Assembly: GCA_024239055.1 (NCBI GenBank)
Contig: JANBVJ010000002.1
Span: 67,874 to 131,873 of the forward strand
Source: Patescibacteria group bacterium
GTDB lineage: Bacteria; Patescibacteriota; Minisyncoccia; Minisyncoccales; UBA10102
Length of the DNA: 64,000 bases
Direction: 5' to 3'
Shown: positions 11,542 to 59,176 of the stretch, in pieces
Layout of the letters: every line of letters begins with the position of its first letter
Position numbering within the stretch: the stretch's first letter is position 1
Translations under genes and position numbers: made by a program
Notes under the pieces: model-generated
Database searches by the model: none
What the model was told of the DNA's origin: nothing
Seen by the model: the letters and a program-made list of their open reading frames with translations, nothing else

Positions 11542-11580
11542 GAAAATTTCATGTTTCATGAGAGAGTTTTGTGTTATACA
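11542..11580 (-). promoter_or_regulatory. Conserved 39-bp promoter/leader element, copy a (upstream of the ParB-like gene)
   Basis: Minus strand reads TGTATAACACAAAACTCTCTCATGAAACATGAAATTTTC, identical at 38 of 39 positions to 55702-55740. TATA-like TGTATAA at its 5' end. Confidence 0.6.
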
Positions 11581-11730
11581 TTATGTAACTTAGAACAGTC
11601 TAACACTTCTTGATCGTTTGATGATCAATAAATAAAAATAATTATTATCTTAATTTTGTACACGCAGGTGCGATCGGATAAATAAGTCTGGATCATTAAT
11701 AGGAGAACTCTTTTTCGACTTTTTGTTAGT

Positions 11731-11850
11731 TGGACAATGGACATTGGACATAATCCGGTGTAAGTATAATGTGATCCTGTCCAGTGTCCATGTCGACCGA
11801 TCTATTCTGCCACTCAAAAAAAATGGACAACTAGACACGCCTGATGGACA
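11731..11850. repeat. Iteron-like TGGACA cluster
   Basis: TGGACA at 11731, 11738 and 11745 (7-nt spacing), inverted TGTCCA at 11778 and 11785 (7-nt spacing), and further TGGACA at 11824 and 11845. Confidence 0.7.
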
Positions 11851-11877
11851 TCTTTTCGAAGGGGAAATGTCGTATCG

Positions 11878-11902
11878 GTTATGACACGTACATCTTTCGA
11901 TA
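11878..11902 (-). promoter_or_regulatory. Copy 2 of the ACGT-centred palindromic motif
   Basis: gttatgacacgtacatctttcgata. Intergenic, between the TGGACA cluster and the GATC-rich repeats. Confidence 0.5.
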
Positions 11903-11907
11903 CAACA

Positions 11908-12062
11908 TTACTAAACATAAGATCAGTTCATGATCAGATCGTGATCAGATCAAGATCAATTTGTTGTTGATAACCTGTACAGTTTTAGTAAACATTAGAT
12001 CAGATCATGATCAGATCGTGATCAGATCAAGATCTTTTTGTTGTTGATGACAGTACAGTTTT
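11908..12062. repeat. Two tandem ~78-bp repeats, extremely GATC-dense
   Basis: Units 11908-11986 and 11987-12062 share ...gatcag.tcatgatcagatcgtgatcagatcaagatc..tttgttgttgat.ac..gtacagtttt. I count 6 + 7 = 13 GATC sites in 155 bp of an AT-rich genome. Confidence 0.85.
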
Positions 12063-12117
12063 CATGGAGAGTTTGTTTTTCCTTGAATGTTTTAGTGAAA
12101 TAGGTGGGTCTTTTGAA

Positions 12118-13740
12118 TTACTTTGTCACTCGTTTCTTTCTTTGTCGTTGAAACCATTTCTGATAGCCTGTAAATGACCAATCATCAGGAGCAAGACCCA
12201 ATGTTACAACATGATCAAATACATCCTTTTGTTTCATCTTTGATTTGGATTTGTCAGTAGGATTCATCATTGACATTGTTAAATCATATATCCTATCCAT
12301 GTTTGAATCCTTTACTTTCTTATCATCATTCAATACATCCTGTGCTGTATCAGTTAACTCTCCATCCTTCTTCTTTTCAATAAACCTCCATGTTGCTCTT
12401 TCTTTGTTTTTCTCAGTCTCTTTGATTATCCCTGTATCTTCTTCGAAATCATCATCTGCTGAATGGTGATGGAACTCCGGCATTCGTACATTGAATAGTT
12501 TGAATATGTTTCCTTTTTCGTTTTTCTTTGGATACAGAACATACATTTGGTCTGGTCTTAGATCTTCAAAGTTTGGATACATCTTTTGTGCATAACCTAT
12601 TCCCACTTTCTCAATAACTTTGTCTCTAAATTCTTTAATCATTTTCCTTAACCAATCATAATCTTCCGGTACAATGTCTATGTTAGATTGCTTCCAAATG
12701 AAGAAGTCCCTTTGGTCACGCACATTTTTTAGCACATCCCCACCACGTTGCATGTCTCCAACTAAACTTACGTGAAAATGTCTACAAATCTTTACCAATG
12801 CGAATACTGCTTTCTTTACAATTACTTGATTGCGTTCTTCTGTTAACATTGATGCAACGAGTGAACCGAATTCCCTCATCACTATTGTTACTCTATGTCT
12901 GTTCTTTTCTTGTACAGTCCATTTACTAAATGGTACAGGTTTATCTAATCCTCTTTGTTGAGCAATCGTTCTAGGTGTATTTGTCTTAAAGTTTGAACGT
13001 ATTATTTCTGGTATTTCTCTTAATGTTTTTTCAAGAATGATTAACTTGTGATTTACTTCTCTAAAGAAGATTGGATTCATAGTAATTATTCTTCTTTCAT
13101 TCTTACCCATTAGCATGATCTCAGTCAGGTCAGCAACGAATAGTTCTCTGTTCTTGTATCCCTTGTTTGGTACATGTATTTTCCTTACCTTAATCCATTG
13201 AATATAATCAGGTCTGATTGGTTTTTTCCTTTCCTTTTCACCATTTTCATGTGTAATTAGTGTTCCATATTCTATATGACCTAGATCTGCCCATTCTCTT
13301 TTTGAATAAAACTTTCCATTGAATTCATCTAGGGCTTGCTGATCAATTTCTACATAATCTGGTACTACTAGAACTATTTTGTATTTTGAATCACAATTAC
13401 AATGAAGTGGTTCTATTGTTCTTTCTCTTTCTGGTAGTTTTTCATTCTCAATATTCCACCTTTCCCAATATTTTTTACAATTTTTGTTAATTACCCAATA
13501 AAGTGACTCGTAATTACCTGCACTATGTAGGTCTAATACAGTATGTCCTGCCCTGAAATTTTCTTCTGCAATTACTTCATCAAGACTTGACTTTCCACTC
13601 CCACGATTGCCCATAATGAAATAGATGAATGCCTTGAATGGATTGATAAATGCGTTAGGGTTTTTTGGTTTCTGTTCTACTTGTCTTTGATGTACGAACT
13701 CTTCATGAGTTTCATTTGCTTCATCTTGTTCCTGTGCCAT
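12118..13740 (-). CDS. P-loop NTPase (540 aa), candidate genome-packaging ATPase / terminase-large-subunit-like
   Basis: Walker A FIMGNRGSGKSS resembles the GGRGSGKS-type loop of some terminase large subunits. Candidate Walker B is KIVLVVPD. A large C-terminal domain has unknown fold. No portal or capsid gene lies nearby, so the role is tentative. Confidence 0.75.
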   Translation of the reverse strand: MAQEQDEANETHEEFVHQRQVEQKPKNPNAFINPFKAFIYFIMGNRGSGKSSLDEVIAEENFRAGHTVLDLHSAGNYESLYWVINKNCKKYWERWNIENEKLPERERTIEPLHCNCDSKYKIVLVVPDYVEIDQQALDEFNGKFYSKREWADLGHIEYGTLITHENGEKERKKPIRPDYIQWIKVRKIHVPNKGYKNRELFVADLTEIMLMGKNERRIITMNPIFFREVNHKLIILEKTLREIPEIIRSNFKTNTPRTIAQQRGLDKPVPFSKWTVQEKNRHRVTIVMREFGSLVASMLTEERNQVIVKKAVFALVKICRHFHVSLVGDMQRGGDVLKNVRDQRDFFIWKQSNIDIVPEDYDWLRKMIKEFRDKVIEKVGIGYAQKMYPNFEDLRPDQMYVLYPKKNEKGNIFKLFNVRMPEFHHHSADDDFEEDTGIIKETEKNKERATWRFIEKKKDGELTDTAQDVLNDDKKVKDSNMDRIYDLTMSMMNPTDKSKSKMKQKDVFDHVVTLGLAPDDWSFTGYQKWFQRQRKKRVTK

Positions 13741-16695: not shown

Positions 16696-17460
16696 TTAAG
16701 ATTCATGACCGTAGCAACTTCCTTCTAGAATCAAAGCCTTGTTTACATTAGTTGTTTGGGTTTCTACTTCAATTCCATTGATATAAACTTCTACGGTTAG
16801 GTTACTATCAATAACATTTCTAAATGTTGCAAAGTACGTACTTGTACCTTGAAATTCATCTGTAAAACATCTAAAGTTTATTTTCATTGATCCAGATTTT
16901 TCAATCTTGCTTGGAACTTTTCTAATATCTACAAAGTCACCATACCAGTCATCGGTAGTTGTAACCATGTAATAGCCGATTGGTTCTTTAGATTTGTCTA
17001 CTTCTACTTTGTCTGATGTTTGAGTTACATCCTTGAAAGGTTCATCGGGAGGTTTTGTTGTAGTACCTTCTTTTTCTCTTTCTAATTCTCTTTCAAGTAT
17101 CCTTTGTTTTGCATCTTCATTTACTTGATATTCTTCTTGTGTCATGCATCTTTCAGGTGTTAACATTGAACCTCCAACAATACCAAAGTTACATTGTGTT
17201 GGATCTAATGGTTCGAACCCTAGATTCTGTGCTACTAGAAAATATGCCATTATAATTATTACTCCAATTATAACTGCACCAACAATTCCTGCTGTTCTTT
17301 TTGGATGTTTTTTACCAATTCCATCATTAGATATTACAATCTTTTTTGGTTTTTTATCATCTGGTTCATCTGTTGGTGGTATTGGAGTGAATTCAGAATG
17401 TTCAATGTCATCTTTTTTCTGTTCAAATTTATCTGAAAAAATTTCCTCTTCCTTGCCCAT
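16696..17460 (-). CDS. Single-pass membrane protein (254 aa), acidic N-terminus inside, beta-rich domain outside
   Basis: TM helix TAGIVGAVIIGVIIIMAYFLVA after a 60-aa charged N-terminus. Preceded by palindromic motif copy 3. Confidence 0.7.
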   Translation of the reverse strand: MGKEEEIFSDKFEQKKDDIEHSEFTPIPPTDEPDDKKPKKIVISNDGIGKKHPKRTAGIVGAVIIGVIIIMAYFLVAQNLGFEPLDPTQCNFGIVGGSMLTPERCMTQEEYQVNEDAKQRILERELEREKEGTTTKPPDEPFKDVTQTSDKVEVDKSKEPIGYYMVTTTDDWYGDFVDIRKVPSKIEKSGSMKINFRCFTDEFQGTSTYFATFRNVIDSNLTVEVYINGIEVETQTTNVNKALILEGSCYGHES

Positions 17461-17510: not shown

Positions 17511-17534
17511 AGTGACACGTACACCTCTGATTCA
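17511..17534 (-). promoter_or_regulatory. Copy 3 of the ACGT-centred palindromic motif
   Basis: agtgacacgtacacctctgattca with a tatcaa arm upstream. It lies 50-75 nt upstream of the ATG at 17460, with a TTTAAA TATA-like box between. Confidence 0.55.
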
Positions 17535-17537
17535 AAA

Positions 17538-17966
17538 TTAATTTCCATCGTAAAATTCTTCTAGTTGGATTTCTCGTTGTTCCAGCAATGATTTTTCATA
17601 GTAAGTTTTCCAAGTGAATTCAATTCTGGTTTGGTTCTCAGTTTTTTCTACAATGTAGGTATTTTGACCTTCAAACAAATTAAGATAAACGTTAACTGCT
17701 CTTTCAACTCTCATGTCTGTCTCATCATTGTTTTCATAAGTTAACCGGAATTTCACAACATCAGCGTTTTTTTCTATCCCATCTCTATTTTGAAATTCTA
17801 ATTGACTTCTAATATCGTAATCCCAAATCATTCCGATTAACATTGTTGGAAAAATAATGTTATAGACTAATGATACAATAATGATTGTACCAATTATAAT
17901 TATTATTCTTGTTTTGGTATTTGTTTTTTTTCTCTTTTGCTCATTGTTTTCAAACTTTCTTTTCAT
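17538..17966 (-). CDS. N-terminally anchored protein (142 aa)
   Basis: Basic N-terminus + helix IIIIIGTIIIVSLVYNIIF. Preceded by palindromic motif copy 4. Confidence 0.65.
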   Translation of the reverse strand: MKRKFENNEQKRKKTNTKTRIIIIIGTIIIVSLVYNIIFPTMLIGMIWDYDIRSQLEFQNRDGIEKNADVVKFRLTYENNDETDMRVERAVNVYLNLFEGQNTYIVEKTENQTRIEFTWKTYYEKSLLEQREIQLEEFYDGN

Positions 17967-18013: not shown

Positions 18014-18036
18014 ATGTGACACGTACACCTTTGATA
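18014..18036 (-). promoter_or_regulatory. Copy 4 of the ACGT-centred palindromic motif (best palindrome)
   Basis: In tatcgaatgtgacacgtacacctttgata, the arms TATCGAATGTG and CACCTTTGATA are complementary at 9 of 11 positions around ACACGTA. Overlaps a T7 run (18036-18042) just after the 1344-aa gene stop. Confidence 0.6.
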
Positions 18037-18044
18037 AAAAAATT

Positions 18045-24745: not shown

Positions 24746-24810
24746 TGATTGGATTCATGAATTTCATGTATTAATCTTGAATTAAGTAAATTATTTTAGA
24801 TAGTTGTCAA

Positions 24811-27800
24811 CTAACTTGAATCGAATTTCTTCTTGAATTTCTTCTTTACTCGTGTCTGTCTCCTTCTGCCTCCCTTGACCCTTCTTCTAATGAAGTTTCC
24901 AAACACTGCTGAGGCTATTAAGACCATGAATAGTAGGATTATCTGTAATTGGACTATATCTAGAGGAATAGGTCTGCCATCTACGAATACCTCAGTCGAA
25001 GCCACATATTCTTGATCACCAAGTCCGAACCTGAATTCTAATGGTAGAGTGTGTAGGATTGGGTCAAAGCAGTTTATTGTAATGCCTAAATCTGCATTAC
25101 ATTCTGATGGAGGCAAAACTATTGTATATGGAATATCAGCACTCGACATTGCAAATTCACCAGTTCCTTCAAGTCGCTGAACAAGTGGGAATGGTGGCAA
25201 GTCGAATCTTATATCTAGGTCTGAATCTGGAAGAGTTATTCCCTTTACTATGAGATTATCTTCTCCTTCCCATTGAACTGTGATAGATCCTTCAATGACC
25301 TGTCCTGCCTGAGCAAACTGATGAGTTCTTGAGAGTATTGAAAGTCCAGTTAACCTTTGTGCAAACACTACTTCTGGATCTGGAATCGTTATTTGTGGTG
25401 TTGGTTGTGAACCACTTCCTCCACCTCCACCACCTGCTGGTGCTCTTCCTAAGAATAGGTTGAAGTTGATTGTTACATCAGTCATGTTAACTACGTATGT
25501 TTCAGATGTGATTTTATTCAATCCTGAATTATATGAAGTTGGAACTACATCTGCACTTGCTAGGAATTGTTCTGCATTTGCCTTGAATATTGTAGAGATA
25601 AAGTCTGCAACCATTGTAGAAGTATCATTTACTGCACTTCCTTGCCATCTTGTACTCCAACTAACTTGATCGGTTGAATCACAAACTGGTGTTGATGGGA
25701 ATTCTGTAATGTCTTTTGCATCAGTATAGTTTACTTTGATTCTAATATCTGTGCCAGCACCATTCGTGGGACAATCAACGTCAAATACCAATGCATTTAT
25801 CGTAAATTCTGATGTATCATTGCCTGCTGGTGCAGGGAAGTTGAATGTCTTGTTTAGGATAAAGTCATCTGCATCTGTGAATGTAAAGTTAAAGTTTCCT
25901 ACAGCAAGATTATCAAATATTGCGTTTGAATTTACATCAAGACCTACAAGTAGATTGAATGTAGAGTTTACACCTTCAACAATTCCTCCACCTTTGAAGA
26001 ATGATCCATCCTGTTCTCTTACCTTGACGATTAGATGAGATCCAAATATTATATCTACAACATTACTTACAGTTCCCTCTCCTGCACTTGAAAGTGCCCT
26101 TATACGATAACCAAATGTATCAGGCTTTGTGACATTTGAATCGCTGAAATTCAAAACGTTTGGAGTCGTAGTATTGGCAATTAATGTAGTGAATCCTCCA
26201 AAGTTAATTCTTCTATCAATCTTGTAACCTGTAATTGGGTTTGCAGAAGCCGGAGTAGTCCATGAAATATCTATCTGATCTCCATTTTGTGCACCTGAAA
26301 GTAGAGGTGCATTAGGTGGACTAGCAGTTGTTATTGATCCTTCATTGCTGAATGCTCCTGTACCAAATGCATTGATTCCTGATATTCTATATGTGAATTG
26401 TGTAGCAGGAGTTGTTGTCGTATCAGTAAACGTAACGAGTGAATTACCAGTATTAGCAATTAGAACTAAAAATCCACCTGCTCCAACCTTTCTTTCAATT
26501 TTATATCCAGTTGGTGATCCTGCTGGTTCAGTCCAATCTATAGTTACATCACCATTTGGTTCTTCATTAACATCAACAAGTGATGGTGCATCTGGTACAC
26601 CTGAAATAACAGGCAAACAACTTTCAATGTTTGAAGTAACATTTGCGAATCCTAACCTACTTCCTGCACGTACATCATACTCGTACAAAATATTCATTAA
26701 AAGTCCAGTATCATTATGAGTTGTTATTATGTTTGTTGTATTTGAAATTAAGGTCGTGAATCCTCCACCATCTACCTGTCTAAATATTCTGTAACCGTTT
26801 ATTGCTGATGTAGTTACTGGTGCTGACCATGAAAGTTCACATGTATTTAGTACAGTTGATGCTGATAGATCAGTTATTCCTTCTGGAATTGTTGGTGGAG
26901 TGATAACTACTACATCATTTGATGATACCAAGTCACCTGTAAAGAATGTTAATGTTACATTTCCAGCACCACCATTTAGGAAAGTAATATCATCAATTGT
27001 TCCTTCATAAGTTGAATCTCCTGTACCATCTCTATTGCTTACCATTACTTTGAGATACCTAATTCCTGTAGTACCTGCTTCAATAACTTCTTCTACAGAT
27101 TCTATTGGAGATAAGAAGAGTGGATCTGAAAATATCGTTGCTGTAACTGCTGTACTGTTTGGAACTCCCCTTTGCACTTGAAGATAAACATCATTTATTC
27201 CTAAATCGTCTACATTCGTGGTAAATACTTCTCCTTGAGTTGCTCCTGTATTAATTACAGTTCCATCTGATGCAATAACTCTAATTATTCCATCAGGATT
27301 ATTATGACTTAATCTAAATCCTATAAAGTCCTGACCTTGATTTGGAAGGAGTGTGTTGCTATCACCAAATCCAATAAACAAGTCATTTCCTGTAGTATCT
27401 GATCCTGCTGATAATGCTGTAATATTCAATTTTGCTCTTAGTAACCAATCTTCTGTATCTAGAGTTGTTCCTATTGGGTCAACAAATTCACCTTGATTGT
27501 AGGTTCCTGTTCCACTTGAATCCCAATCCATGAATCTACTTACTGTATCTACTGAAACTCTTGTTCCAGACATTGTTGTAAAGTTGTCAGTTTCAAAGTT
27601 ATCAAAGAAGTCATACTCTACTAAGTAAATGTCATCAACTATTCCAATAATATCTCCGTTTGCAGTTCCATCACTATTTTTTACCATGACTTTGAGATAT
27701 TGTAAATCTGTTATTCCTGCTGGTATTGTTACTGTTTGTGATTCTAATAATGTGTTGAAACTTGCATCAGAAAATAGGTTTATTGTTAGACTTGTAGTTG

Positions 27801-40421: not shown

Positions 40422-40427
40422 TTATCA

Positions 40428-41849
40428 TCACTTTGGGAAATTGCATACTATGAAAGTTGAACCTGTCACAAATGGAACATAGAAATCCCATGCTACAGGT
40501 CTTATTGTATTAGTTACTGAACCTGTTACTCTATTATAATCAACTGCCTGATCAAGAAAACATGAGTATGCATAATTCTTTTGTGATTTTGGTGTCATAA
40601 ATCCAAAGTCTCCGTAAGGACTTGTTAATGAATAGTTTGCGTTTCTAAACAATAATTCATCTATTACAACTCCTGTACCTGCTCCTGCATTAATTATCAA
40701 ATCGTTTGCATCAAATAATTTTATTGAACTTACTGATGGTGCTGGATGACTTGCAATAGTAATGGAACCTAAATTACAACCTGTTCCTCTATATCCAGTT
40801 CTTCCCGATAAAGTAGGACATGTTGGACATGTAGGATCAACACAAGTATATGATGCTGATTGAAATCTTGCAATTGATGTTACTTTGAATGAATCATCTT
40901 GTGGATAAGATCTAATTTGGTTTCCTTCTGTGTCTGTTATGAATATTTGAATGTCATCACGAAATATATCAACTGAGAATAATGTTTGGTTAGTTAATCC
41001 ATTTCTTTGTAATTCTTGACCAACACATGGAGATGTTATACATACAATATTTTCTTTAACTGATAAATCCAAACTTTTAACAATAAATGATACTTTTGTG
41101 ATCGCTTCATTAACAAATTTATCAAAGTGTGCATTAAAATCAAATGTTAAATTATCTGAAAGTATTTCAAGTGGAAGTGGTGTGAATTGTAATTTTAATT
41201 CACCATTTTGATCTGTTAATCCGTTTCCAGAAATTCTTGCATCAGTTGGAAATATTTCTAAGTCACCAACTTTTATGTTAAATGTTCCATCAGCATTGAT
41301 CTGTGTGTCTGGATCTGTTTTTAAATTCAAATCAAGTTCAATAAATCCATTTCTGAAATCAATATCTGTTGTTTCTTCAACAAAAAGTGATGCAAATGGT
41401 ATATCAAAAGCAAATGTTTCATTGAATCTTTGTAATGTGCTGTCAATTTTAACTACATCTGCTTCAACTTGAATTACTTTTGCTGTTCCACAAAATAAGT
41501 TTAGTTCATCACAAATTTGTTCAATTGGTGGATCATCTGATGTTTCTGTCATGTTAATCATTGGATCATTAACTGGATCAACTACTGGTGGTTCATCTGG
41601 TAGACAGTTTATTCTTGGTGGATTATTTGTACCATCTTCTATTACATCATCAATACAATCTGGATCTGTTGGATCAATAATTGGTGGTACTGGTATTGGT
41701 ACTTCAAACGGATCTGTATCAATTTCTTGTGGTGCAATATTATCCAAGTCAACATTAAAAACAAATAACATAACCGGAACAATCACTGCGATCAATACTC
41801 CAATTCCAAATACTGCAATTACAATTCTGCTGATTCCTTTTTTAGCCAT
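40428..41849 (-). CDS. N-anchored secreted protein, paralog family member 1 (473 aa, ends CNFPK)
   Basis: MAKKG + TM, Pro/Asp-rich linker, FVEETTDIDFRNGF, DQNGELKLQF, FSVDIFRDD, PKSQKNYAYSC, C-terminal CNFPK. All are shared with 41856-43307 and 43314-44975. Confidence 0.9.
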   Translation of the reverse strand: MAKKGISRIVIAVFGIGVLIAVIVPVMLFVFNVDLDNIAPQEIDTDPFEVPIPVPPIIDPTDPDCIDDVIEDGTNNPPRINCLPDEPPVVDPVNDPMINMTETSDDPPIEQICDELNLFCGTAKVIQVEADVVKIDSTLQRFNETFAFDIPFASLFVEETTDIDFRNGFIELDLNLKTDPDTQINADGTFNIKVGDLEIFPTDARISGNGLTDQNGELKLQFTPLPLEILSDNLTFDFNAHFDKFVNEAITKVSFIVKSLDLSVKENIVCITSPCVGQELQRNGLTNQTLFSVDIFRDDIQIFITDTEGNQIRSYPQDDSFKVTSIARFQSASYTCVDPTCPTCPTLSGRTGYRGTGCNLGSITIASHPAPSVSSIKLFDANDLIINAGAGTGVVIDELLFRNANYSLTSPYGDFGFMTPKSQKNYAYSCFLDQAVDYNRVTGSVTNTIRPVAWDFYVPFVTGSTFIVCNFPK

Positions 41850-41855
41850 TAATCA

Positions 41856-43307
41856 TCACTTTGGGAAATTACATGTCAAATATGGAAGTCCTGATGGTCT
41901 TAGACATTTACTACAAAATCCTGATCCTACTGGTGCTGATGCTTGTGCTATAGTACAGCGATAAGAGAAATTTTTTTGTTCTTCTGGTGCAGTAAATGTA
42001 AATGATCCGGCAGGTAAACTTCCTGCTGTACTTGTTACTTTACCATAATTTACTGTGTAAGTATCATTTCTTGTTATCAAATCCTTTACTATAAAATTTG
42101 TAAATGGTGCTAGATTTTGTAAAACTAAATCTCCGTTTGAATTTTTTACTTCAAGACTTGCAATTGTTGGTGATCCCAAAGAAAAATAACTAACTCTTGT
42201 CATCCAACACGCATATCTCATGTGTTTATAGCATGAACTAACTCTTACAGATCCACTTTGAGCACCAATATTCAATTGATCATCAGTAGGAAATACTCTA
42301 ACAGGTAGACCTTCTTGGTTTACTATTAGAATTAGGTTTTGATCTCTAAAGAAATCAAAGGTAAATACAGGTAGACCTTGTGCAGAATAGTCTACCTCAA
42401 ATGCTTTTGCATTTAGTTCAAGAATTCTGAATTCCAGTGGTGTTATTCCAGTAGTTTGAATCATTGGAGTTAATGGTGGAACGTTTAGTAGAAAATCTTG
42501 TGATGTTGCACCAGTTGGACTAACGAAATTAATTATTAATTCACCATTTTGATCGGTTGTTCCTGAAAATGAAAGTGTAATTGGTGATTGATTTAATGTT
42601 TGATTATCTAGAAAAACATCATAAAGTCCATCCCCTTCAACAAAGATGTTTGGGTCTGTTTTTATTTTTAATACTGTTACAAATCTACCTTCACTGAAAT
42701 CCTTGTTTGATGTATCTTCAACAAATAATGCTAATGGGAGTAATTGAAACTCGCTTGTCACAGTTTCTTCTGTTAGATCGGTAAAAATTTTTGTAACTTC
42801 TGTTATTACTGCCATATCAACTAACATCGGAGTTAATTCTTCTGGATCTTCTTCTGGTGGTAAAATTTCAGTTACATTATCTCCTATTAATGGATCAGTT
42901 GTATCTGTTTGATTTTGCAACATTTCTAATTCCATGAATTGATCTTCATCGATTAGAATATCATCTGGATCACCAAGTCCAATCTCACCATTTGGATCTT
43001 CTATTACAAGTTCTTGTATCGGTTCATCAAAAGGAATTGTAAATAAATCTGCACCTTCAACTGGTTCTGTTCCACCAAAAATATATTCATCTACAAGAAC
43101 TCCTAAACCTTCACTATCATTTAGATCTATTATTGTACAAAAAAGTGGTGTCAATTCACCATAAAGAAAATCATTTACATTTGTTGTATCCATTGGAACT
43201 CCTTGTTTTAGAGTACAACTGTAAAAATCAATTATCGTAAACCCACCTAATGCTATTAATGCTATAACTACAATCTTTTTCATTGTTAAAAATTTTTTCT
43301 TAGCCAT
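41856..43307 (-). CDS. N-anchored secreted protein, paralog family member 2 (483 aa, ends CNFPK)
   Basis: MAKKK + TM, acidic linker, FVEDTSNKDFSEGR, DQNGELIINF, FTFDFFRDQ, PEEQKNFSYRC, CNFPK. Confidence 0.9.
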   Translation of the reverse strand: MAKKKFLTMKKIVVIALIALGGFTIIDFYSCTLKQGVPMDTTNVNDFLYGELTPLFCTIIDLNDSEGLGVLVDEYIFGGTEPVEGADLFTIPFDEPIQELVIEDPNGEIGLGDPDDILIDEDQFMELEMLQNQTDTTDPLIGDNVTEILPPEEDPEELTPMLVDMAVITEVTKIFTDLTEETVTSEFQLLPLALFVEDTSNKDFSEGRFVTVLKIKTDPNIFVEGDGLYDVFLDNQTLNQSPITLSFSGTTDQNGELIINFVSPTGATSQDFLLNVPPLTPMIQTTGITPLEFRILELNAKAFEVDYSAQGLPVFTFDFFRDQNLILIVNQEGLPVRVFPTDDQLNIGAQSGSVRVSSCYKHMRYACWMTRVSYFSLGSPTIASLEVKNSNGDLVLQNLAPFTNFIVKDLITRNDTYTVNYGKVTSTAGSLPAGSFTFTAPEEQKNFSYRCTIAQASAPVGSGFCSKCLRPSGLPYLTCNFPK

Positions 43308-43313
43308 TAATCA

Positions 43314-44975
43314 TCAATTCGGGAAATCACATGTTACCTTTGTTACAATAAATGAATCTGGTACTAGAGTATGTCTAAAATATATACCATCTGATGTACA
43401 TTTCACACAGATTTCACCACTTTCATATTCCACTCTTTTGTAAGTCACTTTGTATTCGTTTGTACAAGTATAAGATTGAGTTTGTTGGGACTTTGGGAAT
43501 GAAAGATCAGTTGATAGTGAAGGTGAAGCAATTGTTAATGTGTAATTAGTATTTCTTGGTAATAGTTCATTAAGTACCTCTCCTTGACCACCAGCAAATG
43601 ATTGTAGCAGATTTCCACTATCATCTAATAGATTTAACCCAATCACTCTTGCTGTATCAGTATCAAAAGTAATAGTCGTAATATTTGCGATACAACTATC
43701 TGGATTATTAGGTGAAGAGTTACTTCCTCTATTGAGTGTTACTTTACAATCTGGACAATCAGAAATTTTTTTTTCATATAAGAGACACGTTGTTCCTGTA
43801 ACTGCTGTTGTAGCACCAGTGACTTTTAAGACTGAATCTGTTGGAAATATCCTTTCTGTTCCACCACTTTCATCATCAATTATTATTAGATTTGGATCTT
43901 TTGCAATGTCCATACTAAACAAAACATTTTTTGTTCCTTGAAAATTTTGAACTGAATCTACTGTAAAGTCTGAATTAATTAAAACAAACTCCAAAGTTGA
44001 TATTCCATCTGGAAATTTGTCAAAGTTTTCTTCAAATGAGAATGTAAATGATGGTGATCTAAGCCCTATGCTTGAAACAAACTCTGCACCTACACCTGTA
44101 TTAAAATGAGTAAAAGAACATCCTGTATCATCACCACAAAAAATTGCTGGAACTGGACAAATAGTTGTGCATTCTACTCCATCTACGTCAAAAGTTATTT
44201 GATCTGTAAGAACAGATTCACCATTTATTAAAATATCAAAGTCTGCTGTACCAATAATTTGTGGATCATCTGATCTAAAAGATGCTTTAGTTTGAATTTC
44301 TAGAAAACCTTTAGAGAAATCAATGTTAGACACATCTTCAACAAAAAATGATAATGCAGGAATTTGTGAAATTTCAGTTGTAAAAGTTTTGTTGCCTTGA
44401 GTATCAATTTTAGTAATTAGTGATGAAAGTACAACTGTATTGGTTCCTATTGGTGGTACAATAATTATGTCAATACAATCTATTTCATCACATATTTGTA
44501 CAGGTGGTGGATCAATTGATGTATCTGTATTATTAAGATCAGGTGGTGGTAATATTTCTTCAATTTCCTTTTCTAATGCTTCAATTCTTTCTATTGCATT
44601 TTGTAATAATTGCTCAGTAAGAACTCCTTTTTGAGCATCTTGTAATAATTCATCACAAACCCCAACAAAGTCTGGATCAAGTTCGAGTTCTAAACATATT
44701 CGTGCAAATTCTAAATCTTCGGTTGATATTTTTCTAATTTCATCTATTATCTTTTGAATTTGTTGTATTTCACTTTGAGTTATAACAGGTACAGGTATTT
44801 CAAAGCCATCAGGAACTTGTGGTACAATATCAATTCCTAATGCATTTGCATACACTTCTCCAACTATTGGTACTTCAATTCCTGCAAAGAGAAGTAACAA
44901 TGGAGTTAGTATAACAATTGTTAACCCAACTCCTGCTATTAGAGGAGTTTTAATTGCAGATTTTTTTTTAGCCAT
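43314..44975 (-). CDS. N-anchored secreted protein, paralog family member 3 (553 aa, ends CDFPN)
   Basis: MAKKK + TM, helical/acidic linker, FVEDVSNIDFSKGF, FSMDIAKDP, PKSQQTQSYTC, CDFPN. Confidence 0.9.
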   Translation of the reverse strand: MAKKKSAIKTPLIAGVGLTIVILTPLLLLFAGIEVPIVGEVYANALGIDIVPQVPDGFEIPVPVITQSEIQQIQKIIDEIRKISTEDLEFARICLELELDPDFVGVCDELLQDAQKGVLTEQLLQNAIERIEALEKEIEEILPPPDLNNTDTSIDPPPVQICDEIDCIDIIIVPPIGTNTVVLSSLITKIDTQGNKTFTTEISQIPALSFFVEDVSNIDFSKGFLEIQTKASFRSDDPQIIGTADFDILINGESVLTDQITFDVDGVECTTICPVPAIFCGDDTGCSFTHFNTGVGAEFVSSIGLRSPSFTFSFEENFDKFPDGISTLEFVLINSDFTVDSVQNFQGTKNVLFSMDIAKDPNLIIIDDESGGTERIFPTDSVLKVTGATTAVTGTTCLLYEKKISDCPDCKVTLNRGSNSSPNNPDSCIANITTITFDTDTARVIGLNLLDDSGNLLQSFAGGQGEVLNELLPRNTNYTLTIASPSLSTDLSFPKSQQTQSYTCTNEYKVTYKRVEYESGEICVKCTSDGIYFRHTLVPDSFIVTKVTCDFPN

Positions 44976-52490: not shown

Positions 52491-54209
52491 TTATCCCTGC
52501 AAGAAAACTCCTGATCTTTGTCTGTTAATTCCTTTTGCTATCAATGCTAGAATTATTATGAAAACAATGAAACCTAATCCAACCCATAAGAAGTTAAGTC
52601 CTGTAAACAAGAAAAGTAGAATTGGTGGTACACAAATCTCTCCTGCTTCTGGATCTGCATCTCTTCCTTCTGCTTCACAGTCAAGGAACGTTGGGAATAA
52701 TCCCAAGCCATTACCATTTCCACCACCATTTCTGTCACAAGTGAAACCATCTACTGTTTTAGTTGCTGGTTTACCATCTGATCTACAAATTGGTGTATCA
52801 ACTGTTGTAGTACCACCTGTACATTGTAATATTGGACACATATCAGCAATTGGTACTGTTCTAAACACTTTAGATTCTGGTGGACATGAATAGCATGGTT
52901 TTGTAGTTGGATCTTCACCATTAGTTGGTGGTGGTGTAGGATCATCATCTTTTACACAGATTTGTAATCTTGTATCAAACTTTTCACCACTTCCACATGC
53001 AGGTGTATTCCTTGTTACTTCAAATGTTGATGTTGCTGATGGTCTGTTACTTGCATTAGTTTTTGCTGTTACATGGTAAGTTCCCAATGGAATATCTTCA
53101 CTTAATTTTAATGTGCAAAGGTAGAAACTATCTACTCCACTTGTTCTTTGGAATGTTGAAGTTGTTTGAGCAATTGGTATATCACCTACTATTGCTCCAC
53201 TTCTGTCTCTGCCTCCCTTAAAGACAGTACAAATTGGGTTTATTTCATTTGAACCTAAATCGTTTAGCCTAACTGTTACCTTTAATAATTTTATTCTGTC
53301 TCTTCCAGATGTATCAAATACACTTGGATCGATGTTTGTTATTGCTAATGTAGGATCACCACCTACTGTAGTTGGTGGTGGTGTAACCGGAATTACGATT
53401 GATAATGAATTGTGAACTAATTCGTCACTTATTGCATGTGTAGTTCTAAATGTCTCTCCTGCTTGCTGACTTAGGAATGGAATTTCAATCAACAAATTTC
53501 CAGTAAGTCGGAATTCAACTCTTGTGCTTATTGTTGAAGAAGGATCTAATTTATTTTCAATAGATGATGCCTGAGTTACAAGTGGCTTTCCTATTACTCT
53601 TTCACTTCCTATGAAAATTCCTTTTACATTGTTTAATGAATCAAAGTCATCTGGTCTATCATTGTATATCACTGGTGATGAAAGTCCGTTAAATCTTGAT
53701 TCTATAAGTACCCTATTTCCACCTTGATCAAAAGAATAGACATTCAACTTCAAATTTTGGGTTGTTATCTTATATTCTAATCTTGTACCATCTAATGCCT
53801 CTATTACATCACATCCTACTCTTGGTTCACTTGTCATTGTTTCTACTGTACTCCCTGACCTTGTTTGTACTGAAAACGGATTAAGTATCGGACTTATTCT
53901 TTGGAACTGTGTGTTTAAATCGAATTCTGGTTGACCTGATATTTTAACAAGTGTATTCATTTTTAGATTACAATTGTAATTAAACCCACCACCAGATTGA
54001 GGTTTAATGTGATCTGCAAGTATTACACTTGCACCAGTAATATCCAAAGCCGGAAACACAGAATCAATCTCTAAAAAATCAAAGTCCTCAAATGGGTTTG
54101 CTAGGAACAGACTTTCTCCTGAACTTCCAATTACAAAGAAGAACATTATGAAAATTAGTGCACCAATAATCGCTACGCTAGCCTTTGTTGGTTTTCTTCT
54201 TCTTGCCAC
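52491..54209 (-). CDS. Surface protein (572 aa), N- and C-terminally anchored; first gene of the block
   Basis: GTG start (MARRRKPTKASVAIIGALIFIMFFFVIG). Beta-rich domains, Cys/Pro-rich stalk, C-terminal FLWVGLGFIVFIIILALIA + KGINRQRSG. Preceded by palindromic motif copy 5. Confidence 0.9.
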   Translation of the reverse strand: MARRRKPTKASVAIIGALIFIMFFFVIGSSGESLFLANPFEDFDFLEIDSVFPALDITGASVILADHIKPQSGGGFNYNCNLKMNTLVKISGQPEFDLNTQFQRISPILNPFSVQTRSGSTVETMTSEPRVGCDVIEALDGTRLEYKITTQNLKLNVYSFDQGGNRVLIESRFNGLSSPVIYNDRPDDFDSLNNVKGIFIGSERVIGKPLVTQASSIENKLDPSSTISTRVEFRLTGNLLIEIPFLSQQAGETFRTTHAISDELVHNSLSIVIPVTPPPTTVGGDPTLAITNIDPSVFDTSGRDRIKLLKVTVRLNDLGSNEINPICTVFKGGRDRSGAIVGDIPIAQTTSTFQRTSGVDSFYLCTLKLSEDIPLGTYHVTAKTNASNRPSATSTFEVTRNTPACGSGEKFDTRLQICVKDDDPTPPPTNGEDPTTKPCYSCPPESKVFRTVPIADMCPILQCTGGTTTVDTPICRSDGKPATKTVDGFTCDRNGGGNGNGLGLFPTFLDCEAEGRDADPEAGEICVPPILLFLFTGLNFLWVGLGFIVFIIILALIAKGINRQRSGVFLQG

Positions 54210-54255
54210 AAATTAAAATGTAAAAAATTTCTTAATTTACGCCTGTTGTATCAAC

Positions 54256-54278
54256 TGTGACACGTACACATTTAAATC
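54256..54278 (-). promoter_or_regulatory. Copy 5 of the ACGT-centred palindromic motif, at the head of the surface-protein block
   Basis: ctgtgacacgtacacatttaaatc with a tatcaa arm at 54249-54254. It lies 47-69 nt upstream of the GTG at 54209. TTTAAAT is available as a TATA-like box. Confidence 0.55.
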
Positions 54279-55155: not shown

Positions 55156-55176
55156 TACTACACTAAAATTGAAAGT

Positions 55177-55404
55177 TTATGTTAAGAGTGCGAATGGTGA
55201 AACAATCAGTCCTGCATCTACTGAACCTGCAATAGAAAATATAATAACATACGGAATAATTGTTACTGCCAAACCAACAAAAAATAAGTTTCGTGCTTTA
55301 TTTTCATCTCTACCTCTTACAGCAAAGAATCCAACTACTCCACCAAGCCAACCAAACATGATCGGCACTAGATACCAAAAGTGACTTACTTTGCTCTTAG
55401 CCAT
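55177..55404 (-). CDS. Two-pass membrane protein (75 aa)
   Basis: MAKSKVSHFWYLVPIMFGWLGGVVGFFAV ... FFVGLAVTIIPYVIIFSIAG. ATTTTAA element directly upstream of the ATG. Confidence 0.6.
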   Translation of the reverse strand: MAKSKVSHFWYLVPIMFGWLGGVVGFFAVRGRDENKARNLFFVGLAVTIIPYVIIFSIAGSVDAGLIVSPFALLT

Positions 55405-55419
55405 TGATTTAAAATGTAA

Positions 55420-55689
55420 TTATTTTCTTTTGCTGAACCTTTGTACTTGTTGTCCACCTGTTCTTACTTTGTTTCCGATCCATAACCAAAGTGCTCCCCA
55501 AAGAAATCCTACAATATTAAGAATTAATAAAAGATTTGGATCTATAGTAAGTCCTTGAATATCAACAAAGTCAGTAGGATTCGTAAATTGAAGAGCACTC
55601 ACGCCTAAAATACCAATAGTATTTCCAATTAACACGTATGCTCCATACAAAATGAAGATCCAACCAAAGATGAATCTTATTGCTCCCAT
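55420..55689 (-). CDS. Two-pass membrane protein (89 aa)
   Basis: Two long hydrophobic helices and a basic tail. Directly downstream of conserved promoter element copy b. Confidence 0.65.
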   Translation of the reverse strand: MGAIRFIFGWIFILYGAYVLIGNTIGILGVSALQFTNPTDFVDIQGLTIDPNLLLILNIVGFLWGALWLWIGNKVRTGGQQVQRFSKRK

Positions 55690-55701
55690 AATTAAAAATT
55701 A

Positions 55702-55740
55702 GAAAATTTCATGTTTCAAGAGAGAGTTTTGTGTTATACA
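55702..55740 (-). promoter_or_regulatory. Conserved 39-bp promoter/leader element, copy b
   Basis: Minus strand reads TGTATAACACAAAACTCTCTCTTGAAACATGAAATTTTC, 13-51 nt upstream of the ATG at 55689. Confidence 0.6.
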
Positions 55741-55753
55741 AAAATGTGTTTCT

Positions 55754-55770
55754 AAAAAAATAAAAAAAAA
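55754..55770 (-). terminator. Oligo-T terminator (T9-A-T7 on the coding strand) after paralog 1
   Basis: The plus strand shows a7-t-a9, about 25 nt downstream of the stop at 55795-55797. Archaeal-type oligo-T termination signal. Confidence 0.65.
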
Positions 55771-55794
55771 GGGGTTTGTTGAATTCGACTAAGA

Positions 55795-56826
55795 CTATTC
55801 TTGTACTTGTACTGTGTCAGATACGGATACAGTTCCTTGTGATGGTGTTAGTGACTTTAGAGTTAATGTAACTCCCAAATCATCTGCACCTGCTAAGTTC
55901 GTTACGAACTTCATTGGTATTGGATGTACAGTGTTTCCGTTCTGTGCAGTGGTTACGTAGTTAGCATTATCGAGAGTTGCAGTAGTACCTACTTTGAATC
56001 GATACAGAATTGAACTGGTTTGAATTTGTTCATCAAATTCTGTTAGTGATACGAGACCAATGTTTGGAATATCCAAGTTGGTTTGTCCTCTATCCCACTT
56101 CTCTTCTGATGCGTTGTCTATGCTGATTGTGTATTCATACACTGGATCGGCAGATTTCTGTGCTACGTTTTGCTCCCATCTAATGAAGTTTTGTACTCCT
56201 GATGCAGTTCCAACTCCTGTGATATTTGCTGGTGCATTCAGTGTGCTCGCACCATAATCGTAGGAATTTATGAATAGACTAAGTGTTGATGCTGTTTGTC
56301 CGGCTACCGGATTTGGCATGTCTCTTAAATCTATTTTGAACCACCATTCACGAGATCCATCTGAGTTGACATCCATAAATCCAAAGTCCATGATACGTGG
56401 ATTCAAGTTCTGGTCTGCTGTGCTACTAGGTGCTACAAAGAAGTCTTGTCCCGATGGTACTGTTGATGTTGCATACAAGATACTGTCTTGTGCTGAGTCT
56501 ATTGAGATTGTGTTACCTGTACCACTACCAATTGTGAAGAAGTTTACTCCATCAAATGATTTGTAGTATGTGGTTACAAGATTTGTTCCCTCGATTCTAG
56601 CCTCTGCGTTATCTAGTGCGTTTCTGTGCACTACATTGACGGTTAGTTGTCCTGCGAATTCATTGCCTGTGGATGGTACGCCAGCAGGTGGAACTTGTAC
56701 TCCACCGTTTCCGGCAGGTTGTCCAATGTTCAGACTTTGTGGTGATATTGCACCTGTTCCAAAGCCTATAAGCACTGCTACAACCACTATCCCTAAGACA
56801 ATTAATGGTGTGTTTGATTTTGCCAT
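55795..56826 (-). CDS. N-anchored ~345-aa protein, tandem paralog 1 (G/C-richer codon usage); candidate major structural/surface subunit
   Basis: MAKSNTPLIVLGIVVVAVLIGFGTGAI anchor. NIGQPAGNGG, TTYYKS.DGV.F, REWWFK.DLRD.P.P.AGQ.ASTLSLFINSYD, FIRWEQ and LDIPNIG.VSLT.FDEQ are conserved with paralog 2. Flanked by a strong terminator. Confidence 0.9.
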   Translation of the reverse strand: MAKSNTPLIVLGIVVVAVLIGFGTGAISPQSLNIGQPAGNGGVQVPPAGVPSTGNEFAGQLTVNVVHRNALDNAEARIEGTNLVTTYYKSFDGVNFFTIGSGTGNTISIDSAQDSILYATSTVPSGQDFFVAPSSTADQNLNPRIMDFGFMDVNSDGSREWWFKIDLRDMPNPVAGQTASTLSLFINSYDYGASTLNAPANITGVGTASGVQNFIRWEQNVAQKSADPVYEYTISIDNASEEKWDRGQTNLDIPNIGLVSLTEFDEQIQTSSILYRFKVGTTATLDNANYVTTAQNGNTVHPIPMKFVTNLAGADDLGVTLTLKSLTPSQGTVSVSDTVQVQE

Positions 56827-56936
56827 GTTTATTCTTCCTTATACTAAAATAGCACATTTTGTGTCTGTGAATTTAGGCACGAAATAGGTGTAAAATATGA
56901 CCTGAAATTGATAGAAATCAAGAAAAAATGAGTTTT

Positions 56937-57986
56937 CTAAGATTCATCTAATCTAACTGTGTCAGAAACAGTTGTTGTTCCTTGATTAGATGTAACTGAT
57001 TTGAGTGTCAATGTTACATCAAGATTATCGTTTGTTGCGTTATCTTGTAGGCTAAGAACAATCTTGAGTGGGATTGGTTTGACTTCATTTCCATTTTGGG
57101 CAGTAGTTACATAATTTGCGTTATCTAATGTCGCTGTCTCACCTACTTTGTATCTGTATAGTGTATCTGTGGAACTAAGTAATTGTTCATCAAAGTCAGT
57201 TAGTGATACTATACCAATATTTGGAATGTCCAAAGATGATAGACCTCTATCCCAAAACTCTGTTCCTCCTGCACCACTGACCTTCACAATTTGAACTGTA
57301 TATTCATAGACTGCATCGGCAGTTTCTTGTAATACTGATTGTTCCCATCTGATGAAGATAACTGTTCCTGATGCTTGTCCAATATTTAGAATGTTTGCTG
57401 GTGAATTTAATGTGCTCGCACCATCATCATAAGAATTAATGAATAGACTAAGTGTTGATGCTACCTGTCCGGCAATCGGAGCAGGAATATCTCTTAAATC
57501 AGTTTTAAACCACCATTCACGAACTCCATCCAAATTAACATCCATAAATCCAAAGTCTATGATTCTTGGATTTGGGAGTGACATGCTAGATGGTGCTACG
57601 TAGAAAGGATCTAATGGTACAACTGTGAAATACAAGATACTGTTCATTGAAGAATCAATTGAGATAGTAGTTGCACCATTACCTAATGAACTAAATGAAA
57701 CTCCATCTACTGATTTGTAATATGTGGTTCTCAAATCAATACCCTCATCCCTAGTTTCACTATTATCCAGTGCATCTCTGTGCTGTGGATCAACTATTAA
57801 TTCGCCTGTAAAACCTGTTCCTGTTGATGGTGTTCCATCAGGTGATGTTTGAATTCCACCGTTTCCGGCAGGTTGACCAATGTTTAAATTTTGAAGATTA
57901 ATAACTCCTGTACCCATTCCTACTACTAATGCTACTATAATTACTCCTAAAATAACAACGCCTGCTCTGACCATTTTCTTTCTCAT
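56937..57986 (-). CDS. N-anchored ~345-aa protein, tandem paralog 2 (likely start at 57974)
   Basis: The ORF track start MRKKMVRAG is at 57986. The ATG at 57972-57974 (MVRAGVVILG...) aligns with the start of paralog 3, and the 76 bp at 57907-57982 are identical to 59002-59077. Confidence 0.9.
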   Translation of the reverse strand: MRKKMVRAGVVILGVIIVALVVGMGTGVINLQNLNIGQPAGNGGIQTSPDGTPSTGTGFTGELIVDPQHRDALDNSETRDEGIDLRTTYYKSVDGVSFSSLGNGATTISIDSSMNSILYFTVVPLDPFYVAPSSMSLPNPRIIDFGFMDVNLDGVREWWFKTDLRDIPAPIAGQVASTLSLFINSYDDGASTLNSPANILNIGQASGTVIFIRWEQSVLQETADAVYEYTVQIVKVSGAGGTEFWDRGLSSLDIPNIGIVSLTDFDEQLLSSTDTLYRYKVGETATLDNANYVTTAQNGNEVKPIPLKIVLSLQDNATNDNLDVTLTLKSVTSNQGTTTVSDTVRLDES

Positions 57987-58007
57987 ATTAAAATAGGAAA
58001 AATTTGG

Positions 58008-59069
58008 TTATGTTACTCGTACCTGAACTATATCACTCAAAACTGTGTTACTTCCACCAGTTTTACTTAAACTCTTAATGCTCAATGTTACATCATGTGT
58101 CTCACCAAGTACACCTCCATCATAGTTTGTAACGAATTTGAATGGTATTGGATGTACATTATTGCCATTTTTAGCACTTGTTACATAATTTGCATTTGCG
58201 AAATCTGATGTATCACCAATTTTGAATCGATATAAAATATTATTTGGATTTATAAATTCTTCAAAGTCTGATAAAGATACCAATCCAATATTTGGAATGT
58301 CTAAGTTACTTTCACCTATATTCCAATCTTCTGTTTGAGCATCATCATCAGTACCAACTATACGAATTGAATATTCAGTTTGTGGTGTTGCAGTACCTTG
58401 TGGTACTGTCATTTCCCATCTGATGAAGTTTACTATTCCTGTACTTTGTGGAACTGATGTTATGTTTGCAGGTGCATTGAGTGTTATTGGAAATCCTACA
58501 TTCCATGAATTTGTAAGAAATGATAGTGTACTTGCACCTTGTCCAGCAATAGGAGCAGTAATACCACGTAAATCTATTTTGTAAAGCCATTCTTTAGATC
58601 CATCATTCGTGACATCTCTAAATGAAAAATCTGTTACTCTATCGTTGACTAATTGTGTACCTTCTGGATTAGAATAAATTTGTGTAGGAGTTGGTGCTAC
58701 TCCTGATGTTGCATATAGAATACTGTTCATGTCTGATGTAATTGTAACTCTGGATGCACCACCTAATCCTTGTACTCCTTGTCCTATTGAACTAAATTGT
58801 TCTCCGTTACTTGATTTGTAGAAAATTGTTAGTATATCTCTCGCTACTCCTTCTTGGTATTGAAAGGAATTATCTAACGTATCAAAATGTTGTAATATAA
58901 CATCTAATTCTCCTGAAAATTCTGTCCCTGTTACAGTAGTAGGTTGTGGTTGTGGAATCCCACCTGATGATTGTCCAATAAGATTTTGTAGGTTAATTAC
59001 GCCTGTACCCATTCCTACTACTAATGCTACTATAATTACTCCTAAAATAACAACGCCTGCTCTGACCAT
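58008..59069 (-). CDS. N-anchored ~350-aa protein, tandem paralog 3
   Basis: MVRAGVVILGVIIVALVVGMGTGVINLQNL anchor. KEWLYKIDLRGITAPIAGQGASTLSF, FIRWEM and LDIPNIGLVSLSDFEE are conserved with paralogs 1 and 2. Confidence 0.9.
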   Translation of the reverse strand: MVRAGVVILGVIIVALVVGMGTGVINLQNLIGQSSGGIPQPQPTTVTGTEFSGELDVILQHFDTLDNSFQYQEGVARDILTIFYKSSNGEQFSSIGQGVQGLGGASRVTITSDMNSILYATSGVAPTPTQIYSNPEGTQLVNDRVTDFSFRDVTNDGSKEWLYKIDLRGITAPIAGQGASTLSFLTNSWNVGFPITLNAPANITSVPQSTGIVNFIRWEMTVPQGTATPQTEYSIRIVGTDDDAQTEDWNIGESNLDIPNIGLVSLSDFEEFINPNNILYRFKIGDTSDFANANYVTSAKNGNNVHPIPFKFVTNYDGGVLGETHDVTLSIKSLSKTGGSNTVLSDIVQVRVT

Positions 59070-59144
59070 TTTCTTTCCTTATAGTAAAATGGAAAATAAC
59101 AAATTGATAAACTAACAAAATATGAGCATGTGATCTAGTAAATT

Positions 59145-59176
59145 ATGTATTTCATGAGAGAGTTTTGTGTTATACA
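59145..59176 (-). promoter_or_regulatory. Conserved promoter/leader element, copy c (upstream of paralog 3)
   Basis: Minus strand reads TGTATAACACAAAACTCTCTCATGAAATACATA, 76-107 nt upstream of the ATG at 59069. Confidence 0.6.

Follow-up and report, generated by a model that had tools for sequence, protein, structure and literature searches.

A short bipartite DNA element occurs three times on the minus strand of a 64-kb stretch of contig JANBVJ010000002.1 (the window, W), and each copy stands at the head of a gene or operon. We establish here that this is a real unit, built from two boxes at a fixed spacing, strictly oriented relative to the genes, confined to intergenic positions, and maintained by selection. 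As to its function, it is probably, though far from certainly, a class-specific promoter or a promoter-proximal recognition module that heads a small set of operons.

Results

Three copies of a bipartite element

The 27-mer TGTATAACACAAAACTCTCTCATGAAA is found on the minus strand at 11580–11554 and 59176–59150 without a mismatch and at 55740–55714 with one, and the sequence shared by all three copies is TGTATAACACAAAACTCTCTC[A/T]TGAAA. No further site with three or fewer mismatches is present on either strand of the 64-kb window, and the chance expectation is zero (100 dinucleotide-preserving shuffles). Copies 1 (11542..11580) and 2 (55702..55740) agree at 38 of 39 positions, running on identically through CATGAAATTTTC; this identity had been claimed in an initial annotation of the region and is borne out by alignment. 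The same annotation described a third, 32-bp version. This copy (copy 3, 59138..59176) is indeed present at 59176, but its exact match covers 27 nt and not 32, after which it continues with TACATAATTTAC, giving 34 of 39 identities to copy 1 in the same register.

The element can be divided into two boxes. Box 1 (positions 1–27) reads TGT[A/G]T[A/C][A/G/C]-CACAAAACTC[T/C]CTC-NN-GAAA, with the GAAA at positions 24–27. Six variable bases (28–33) separate it from box 2 (positions 34–39), which reads (A)TTT(T/A)C and is followed by A or TA; the spacing between the two boxes is constant. In copy 3, box 2 is ATTTAC instead of ATTTTC. A sequence-only profile made from 17 element variants and run on the window returned these three copies only, with E-values from 1e-15 to 1e-12 (copy 1, 52.8 bits, E 2.5e-15; copy 2, 48.6 bits; copy 3, 44.7 bits). 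Two degenerate relatives listed in the initial annotation did not hold up: the site at 12.07 kb (12074–12053) scores E=0.2 and is not conserved in the diverged ortholog L036 (L001–L043 designate related metagenome loci), and the one near 24755–24775 was undetected by the profile at E≤10. A relaxed 16-mer of the element is not enriched in the window (6 seen, 4.2 expected).

All long open reading frames (ORFs) of the window lie on the minus strand, and all three copies are intergenic and oriented as the gene that follows. Copy 1 ends 64 nt before a gene for a 319-aa protein (10518..11477) whose C-terminal half is a coiled coil. Copy 2 lies 3′ of the last of three pilin-like paralogs and 12 nt before a gene encoding an 89-aa membrane protein (55420..55689), while copy 3 precedes the first of these paralogs (353, 349, and 343 aa; 55795..59069) by 68 nt. 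The placement upstream of these three genes, as noted in the initial annotation, is therefore confirmed, as are the oligo-T runs ahead of two copies (T9-A-T7, 13 nt before copy 2, and a T-run abutting copy 3). The flanks of the three copies are unrelated to each other, indicating that the copies are not remnants of a segmental duplication.

The element is conserved in related contigs

The three paralogs have 95 homologs, every one from metagenomes, and loci fetched through this protein homology are independent of the element DNA. The protein-anchored contigs are syntenic with the window and bear the element at two matching places, one separating the 192-aa/60-aa genes from the first paralog and the other following the last paralog. 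A second set of 25 loci was obtained by scanning metagenome contigs with a degenerate pattern. Box 2 was excluded from this pattern, and its conservation at a fixed spacing thus constitutes independent evidence. In every one of 35 distinct flanked copies (from the scan, the earlier loci, and the window), a co-oriented ORF begins 12 to ~110 nt downstream.

Absence from homologous loci had been named in the initial annotation as an outcome that would speak against the element; instead, all close lineages examined carry it at orthologous positions. Orthologs of copy 1 precede the 319-aa gene in L024, L016, and L036/L038, and a partial one does so in L010; the 319-aa orthologs in scan loci with this context share 71–94% amino-acid identity. 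Orthologs of copy 2 were found in L001, L003, L005, L007, L012, L013, L026, L028, and L031–L035, and those of copy 3 in L003/L004, L005/L006, L007–L009, L012, and L032. The gene headed by copy 2 differs among relatives. W, L026, and L035 have the 89-aa gene, which is missing through an indel from L003, L005, and L032, where copy 2 heads a 75-aa gene and a CPBP/Rce1-like operon. Overall, the element is met in five gene contexts: the 319-aa gene, the pilin-like array, the small-transmembrane/CPBP operon, and, in relatives only, genes for a 145-aa secreted protein and for a 47-aa Cys-rich protein.

Mean pairwise identity between lineages, computed on the protein-anchored loci, is 94% at positions 1–21, 90–100% at the GAAA (24–27), and 83–89% at positions 34–39. 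It falls to 37–59% at positions 28–33 and to 29–53% (ungapped) or 44–65% (gapped) in the flanks, and the proteins adjoining the element are 50–85% identical. These figures indicate that the element is under strong purifying selection across lineages and gene contexts. They also agree with the initial annotation that conservation, at 94% over positions 1–21 and 83–89% in box 2, reaches far past the needs of a TATA box. Exact and degenerate searches for the element in the viral contigs of IMG/VR gave no match, nor did a protein-anchored search of viral contigs, and the exact 21-mer is absent from GTDB genomes. A protein-anchored search of genomes recovered one short contig only, in an Anaerolineaceae metagenome-assembled genome (MAG) bin. 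Known phages have no DNA or protein similarity to the window.

Sequence variants point to a variable 5′ region

The information profile of the 35 distinct flanked copies shows a sharply bounded block of ~41 nt. The invariant bases of box 1, CACAAAACTCYCTC, are C-rich, and its least constrained part is the 5′ heptamer, with positions 4–7 varying most. The initial annotation took this heptamer, TGTATAA in the window, for a TATA box, a proposal that comparison with the relatives does not support: TGTGTCA replaces it in L007, where both copies on a single contig have the change, and in L013, L014/L029/L030, and L036/L038, and it reads TGTATAG or TGTATCA in other lineages. The box-1 variants met are TGTATAAC, TGTGTCAC, and CCAAGAATC.

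More distant loci retain parts of the element. L042 and L043, with paralogs ~47–50% identical, retain the 3′ two-thirds only (CTCTC-NN-GAAA-N6-ATTTTCA, immediately upstream of genes) and have a 5′ part of their own that is common to both (CCAAGAATC, CCAAAGATC). In L010, where the 319-aa ortholog is 59% identical, box 2 survives and box 1 is mostly lost: TGAAACATGAAATTTTCAAG is kept and CACACAAAATCCGTCAG stands where box 1 should be. In the L001 lineage, box 1 is missing before the first paralog and ATCATTTTCAG is retained. No recognizable copy was seen in L041 (31% identity) or in L039, a locus binned as Woesebacteria. This modular decay, together with the GTGTCAC variant borne by both copies of the L007 contig, suggests that the element contains a lineage-specific specificity region. 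A C39-A40 or T40-A41 pyrimidine-purine step is found in all copies and is suggestive only.

Other upstream signals in the element family

A second, generic signal lies just upstream of the start codons of many genes in the window and in all relatives L001–L043. Its consensus is (T)TACATTTTAG / CTATTTTA (YATTTTA; hereafter the generic box), with examples at 2662–2672, 54213–54223, 55409–55419, 59400–59410, 60040–60050, and 59084–59094. The last of these (TTCCATTTTAC, minus strand) lies between copy 3 and the start of paralog 1, and boxes of the same class precede many genes, among them two minus-strand ORFs of 75 aa (55177–55404) and 60 aa (59214–59396) that are conserved in relatives and fall under the 80-aa listing threshold. 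The distance from generic box to start codon is 4–6 nt, or 16–22 nt where an AAGGAA stretch intervenes. The 56 non-redundant instances include relatives with ~30% protein identity, and the genes concerned show a weak W-W signal (here A or T) 26–27 nt before the ATG. The generic box is possibly the core gene-start signal of the family, serving leaderless or short-leader mRNAs. Box 2 of the element resembles it.

A further class of upstream motif, class B, consists of TGTACGTGTCAC flanked by inverted ATCA...TGAT. It has five sites in the window, on the gene strand only (7169–7180, 11881–11892, 17512–17523, 18016–18027, and 54257–54268, all minus), and is conserved in relatives. It lies 58–64 nt before the starts of the genes at 16696–17460, 17538–17966, and 52491–54209. 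In loci of the L017 type, the class-B motif falls inside the signal-peptide coding part of the 145-aa ORF. Given the generic box, the element, and the class-B motif, the genome therefore appears to combine a general gene-start signal with two or more classes of long upstream elements.

A model for element function

The simplest account of these observations is that a sequence-specific DNA-binding factor, encoded by the mobile element or by its host, would read box 1 (CACAAAACTCYCTC-NN-GAAA and the lineage-variable 5′ part). Box 2, six bases further on, would then lie at the transcription start (about positions 40–46) or just upstream of it, variable-length leaders would follow downstream of the start, and the oligo-T runs before two of the copies would terminate the operon ahead of them. 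Start codons lie at a variable distance of 12 to ~70 nt and the internal spacing of the element is fixed, as expected of a self-contained promoter with variable leaders. From the sequence we infer that the element directs transcription, the likely start site, and the involvement of a dedicated reader that would be distinct from plain TATA-binding protein (TBP)/transcription factor B (TFB) or sigma-70. The initial annotation had already associated the element with promoters, in keeping with its invariably intergenic position, its co-orientation with the next gene, and its frequent location just after oligo-T; its suggestion of a binding site for a dedicated factor is the best-fitting idea.

Several observations weigh against this reading. 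The loci found by DNA scan necessarily favor box-1 conservation, given how they were selected, and the argument from concerted variants stands on one informative contig. Most contexts also have a YATTTTA box at a fixed 4–6 nt from the start codon, which could be the real core promoter, the element then being an upstream operator or activator site. No conserved A/T-rich 8-mer lies ~27 nt upstream of an allowed start, that is, one still serving the genes that begin 11–12 nt past the element (W copy 2 and L012 copy 2), as an archaeal promoter with a TFB recognition element (BRE) and TATA box would have. A scan for the sigma-70 consensus (−35 and −10 hexamers 16–18 nt apart) found no site at any of the three copies. 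Finally, searches of the window with Pfam, PHROGs, and NCBIfam yielded neither a candidate factor nor an RNA polymerase gene; these databases likewise detected no polymerase domain there, in a window where most proteins are unannotatable and beyond which the genome extends.

Sigma-70-like sites are in fact rarer than in shuffled sequence (40 vs 48.7 and 55 vs 72.9). The one candidate at copy 2, TTGAAA-17-TTTAAT, was discarded because the start would fall inside the ORF and because its TT is unconserved (NNGAAA across variants). In any case, the element cannot be filed under BRE/TATA or sigma-70 promoters, whose defining sequence features it lacks, and it is not assigned to the T7 type either, for which the conserved multi-copy sequence is present but no polymerase domain was detected in the window.

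Alternative explanations

The alternative that fares best, although we consider it rather unlikely, is that the element is purely an operator or activator site that switches a regulon on or off, with transcription starting at the proximal YATTTTA box or at another core promoter. Such a box is found before the start codon in nearly every element context and also before many element-free genes, and the occurrence of class-B motifs at similar positions suggests that several regulator classes feed into one core signal. On the other hand, the element and the proximal box lie ~0 to 50 nt apart with no phasing, which would be unusual for an activator or operator acting on a fixed core promoter, and the element is asymmetric, strictly oriented, and equipped with a YATTTT-like box 2 of its own at a fixed spacing.

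The class-specific promoter that we favor can also be cast in a bolder form, which we regard as distinctly doubtful. It would be a non-canonical promoter whose box 1 is read by a factor or RNA polymerase subunit encoded by the element family, using neither TATA/BRE nor sigma-70 signals, with the 5′ part of box 1 and that factor co-evolving in each lineage. Combined with the class-B motif and the family-wide YATTTTA box, it would form a three-tier, virus-specific transcription program in an archaeal mobile element. The size range of the family is 64 kb to more than 115 kb, and an association with Nitrosopumilales is possible.

A canonical archaeal promoter, in which TGTATAA and the T-run ahead of it would be the TATA box and the rest an initiator or 5′ leader, is improbable. 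In archaea, the TATA box is centered near −27, the BRE lies near −33, a promoter proximal element (PPE) rich in A/T near −10, and transcription begins at a pyrimidine-purine step (PMC5316973). All three window copies start with TGTATAA, two of them have a T-run ahead, a start ~27 nt downstream (positions ~28–32) would still be upstream of every start codon, and the host is possibly archaeal, judging from bare oligo-T runs and a DUF5679 protein 75–78% identical to Nitrosopumilales sequences. However, the heptamer is replaced by TGTGTCA in L007 (both copies) and the other lineages listed above, no T-run precedes the element in the ParB-type, L014, and L017 contexts, the invariant bases CACAAAACTCYCTC are C-rich and thus unlike a TBP site, and the 5′ part is wholly missing in L042 and L043. 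Box 2 cannot be an archaeal TATA box either, because in both W copy 2 and L012 copy 2 translation begins 11–12 nt past it.

It is even less probable that the element acts as a single-stranded RNA signal in the 5′ leader, be it a translation enhancer, a stability or processing site, or the target of a small RNA or RNA-binding protein. The element always lies on the sense strand upstream of the start codon, and it is unstructured and CU- and A-rich, like many single-stranded protein-binding leaders. Against this, two copies come right after oligo-T runs, leaving no room for a promoter that would transcribe the element, the spacing to the start codon differs by a factor of about six, nothing complementary to the element is found elsewhere in the window, and neither an Rfam family nor a covarying structure was found. 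Predicted folding energies of the element are −0.1 to −3.4 kcal/mol (z-scores −0.8 to +1.0), that is, without a stable fold, and Rfam has no match in the window; a structured cis-regulatory RNA such as a riboswitch or leader is ruled out by these results, and the constraint accordingly acts on the primary sequence. Two candidate pairings were rejected as well: a 5′-end hairpin TGT-NNN-ACA has 3 bp only and is not credible, and a long-range pairing in copy 1 of AAAACTCT with AGAGTTTT, 59 nt downstream, is lost in L036.

Very improbable, finally, is a module-boundary linker for cassette exchange or a site for a site-specific recombinase: copies 2 and 3 flank the paralog array in direct repeat, gene content shifts beside the element (the 89-aa gene gained or lost, an extra paralog in L001), and the genomes are mosaic (neighboring proteins 67–100% identical between W and L024), but the element is strictly oriented to genes, also occurs in single-copy contexts, and has no recombinase nearby, its three copies share neither terminal inverted repeats nor target-site duplications, and a regulatory sequence would be an incidental patch of homology anyway. 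A miniature mobile element was rejected for want of shared inverted repeats and because the flanks are unrelated.

Neighboring sequences

The T9-A-T7 run ahead of copy 2 (55754..55770, minus) lies 3′ of the third paralog, has no hairpin, and is a probable terminator of the paralog operon. Ahead of copy 3, the end of the 60-aa ORF is followed by a hairpin (59214–59209 paired with 59198–59193) and then by the T-run (59184–59177), the whole spanning 59177..59214 on the minus strand. The stem of 5–6 bp is conserved and ends 8 nt before the T-run, and compensatory changes preserve its pairing (GGTAGT/ACTGCC in W, GGCAG/CTGCC in L005, GGTAGT/ACTACC in L012). A scan for hairpin terminators on the gene strand between 52 and 64 kb called none. 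Of 14 T-runs of at least 7 nt on the gene strand, 12 are intergenic, compared with 3 of 27 A-runs, and such T-runs are mostly without hairpins, a pattern that resembles archaeal termination.

Downstream of copy 1, a five-lineage alignment revealed the conserved leader blocks GGTAAATTAAGTTTGGCTT and CATTTTAAG (11502..11532, minus). They are part of a densely structured 640-nt gap (11478–12117) between the 319-aa gene and a terminase-like gene. This gap holds two 77-nt tandem repeats (11901–12051) rich in GATC/TGATCA, five TGTCCA iterons (TGTCCC in L036), and a block, ATTAATGATCCAGACTTATTTATCCGATCGCACCTGCGTGT, kept in five lineages. The gap may serve as a site of packaging, replication, or partition, and an MT-A70 methyltransferase gene (9353–9985) lies near it.

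Two further repeats were seen in the window. The 5′ 95-nt segments of paralogs 1 and 2 (58983–59077 and 57888–57982) are 96% identical, compared with 55% identity of the proteins overall, which suggests gene conversion or a common leader or signal sequence. A 39-nt repeat (40410–40448, 41838–41876, and 43296–43334) marks the junctions of paralogous genes for 473-, 483-, and 553-aa proteins, each unit taking in the conserved end of a gene, the 6-nt gap that follows, and the first bases (ATGGC) of the gene after it.

Gene content, origin, and host

Window proteins are almost without matches in Pfam, PHROGs, and NCBIfam. The few matches include the MT-A70 methyltransferase, a CPBP/Rce1-like protease, and a VTT/DedA-like protein, and fn3 domains were detected in proteins of 616 and 5089 aa. 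No tRNA genes are present in the window. The 319-aa protein had been labeled ParB-like in the initial annotation. This label comes down to an IEVA...INGRHR motif (ParB/Srx-like) seen by eye, and Pfam, PHROGs, NCBIfam, and PDB returned no hit of any kind, ParB/Srx included, even when queried with a five-sequence ortholog profile.

The structure model of the pilin-like paralogs (predicted local distance difference test score, pLDDT, 86) comprises an N-terminal hydrophobic helix and tandem immunoglobulin (Ig)-like beta-sandwiches, and its best structural matches are pilins and adhesins; on these grounds the idea that the paralogs are capsid proteins was rejected. The 5089-aa ORF (24811–40080) has internal repeats, and fn3 domains alone were detected in it. 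Its product is probably a giant fiber or adhesin, and a virion RNA polymerase was discarded as a candidate. The 540-aa protein encoded at 12118–13740 has a weak match to a terminase large subunit (phrog_2666, E 8e-6). Some of its homologs (P0139, P0143, P0159) are ~900 aa long with a LAGLIDADG-type (intein-like) domain, and a 41%-identical homolog is encoded on a 61-kb, all-unknown, one-strand contig binned as Woesebacteria.

The window would appear to be part of a virus- or plasmid-like element, uncultivated and of deep-sea sediment origin. Contigs related to it, among them ERZ23486233 scaffold_124 (115 kb), SDBS01000613.1, and SDBU01001509.1, were recovered from assemblies of Loki's Castle deep-sea sediment and from other sediment and groundwater samples. 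The evidence on the host is conflicting. Three contigs were binned as Patescibacteria, Woesebacteria, or Anaerolineaceae, whereas the T-runs resemble archaeal termination and a DUF5679 zinc-ribbon protein of the relatives is 75–78% identical to proteins from Nitrosopumilales MAGs. On balance, an archaeal (Nitrosopumilales) host seems somewhat more likely than others.

Discussion

If the function proposed here is correct, the element marks a co-regulated set of genes in a family of large mobile elements or viruses with hardly any annotatable protein. This set would consist of surface pilin-like proteins, small membrane proteins with the CPBP protease operon, the ParB-motif protein, a secreted protein, and a small zinc-ribbon-like protein. 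The element would thereby offer a handle for sorting dark genes into expression classes and a bait for isolating its cognate regulator. Its bases fit neither the rules for TBP/TFB nor those for sigma-70, and it could thus afford an initial insight into the redirection of transcription by such elements.

Class-specific phage promoters provide the closest parallel. The 23-bp promoters of T7, T3, and SP6, the middle promoters of T4 with their MotA box and −10 element, and the gp28-dependent promoters of SPO1 are the familiar examples. Like them, the element is a long, near-identical, oriented sequence with few copies per genome, each heading an operon, and it combines an invariant core with a lineage-specific specificity part and a variable distance to the start codon. 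Unlike them, it comes without a phage-type RNA polymerase, sigma factor, or MotA-like gene identified in the window; its sequence is also unrelated to theirs, and its host is possibly archaeal.

The element can also be compared with archaeal BRE/TATA promoters that carry regulator sites, such as the early and late promoters of the fusellovirus SSV. It resembles these in being intergenic, oriented, and placed after oligo-T terminators, and its C39-A40 or T40-A41 step after an A/T-rich stretch is reminiscent of an initiator behind a PPE (PMC5316973). It departs from them in having no conserved TATA box at the required distance, in its C-rich best-kept bases, and in a TATA-like heptamer that is dispensable in several lineages.

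A third comparison is with lambdoid phages, whose mosaic genomes have boundary or linker sequences at module junctions. The element shares with such linkers the form of a short conserved intergenic sequence at the edges of exchangeable modules, with indels alongside, and differs in its strict gene orientation, its bipartite fixed spacing, and its presence ahead of unrelated single genes. Set against these systems, the element belongs to a familiar kind of feature, the promoter or operator shared among genes of a virus or mobile element, and is here met in an element family that had not been described before.

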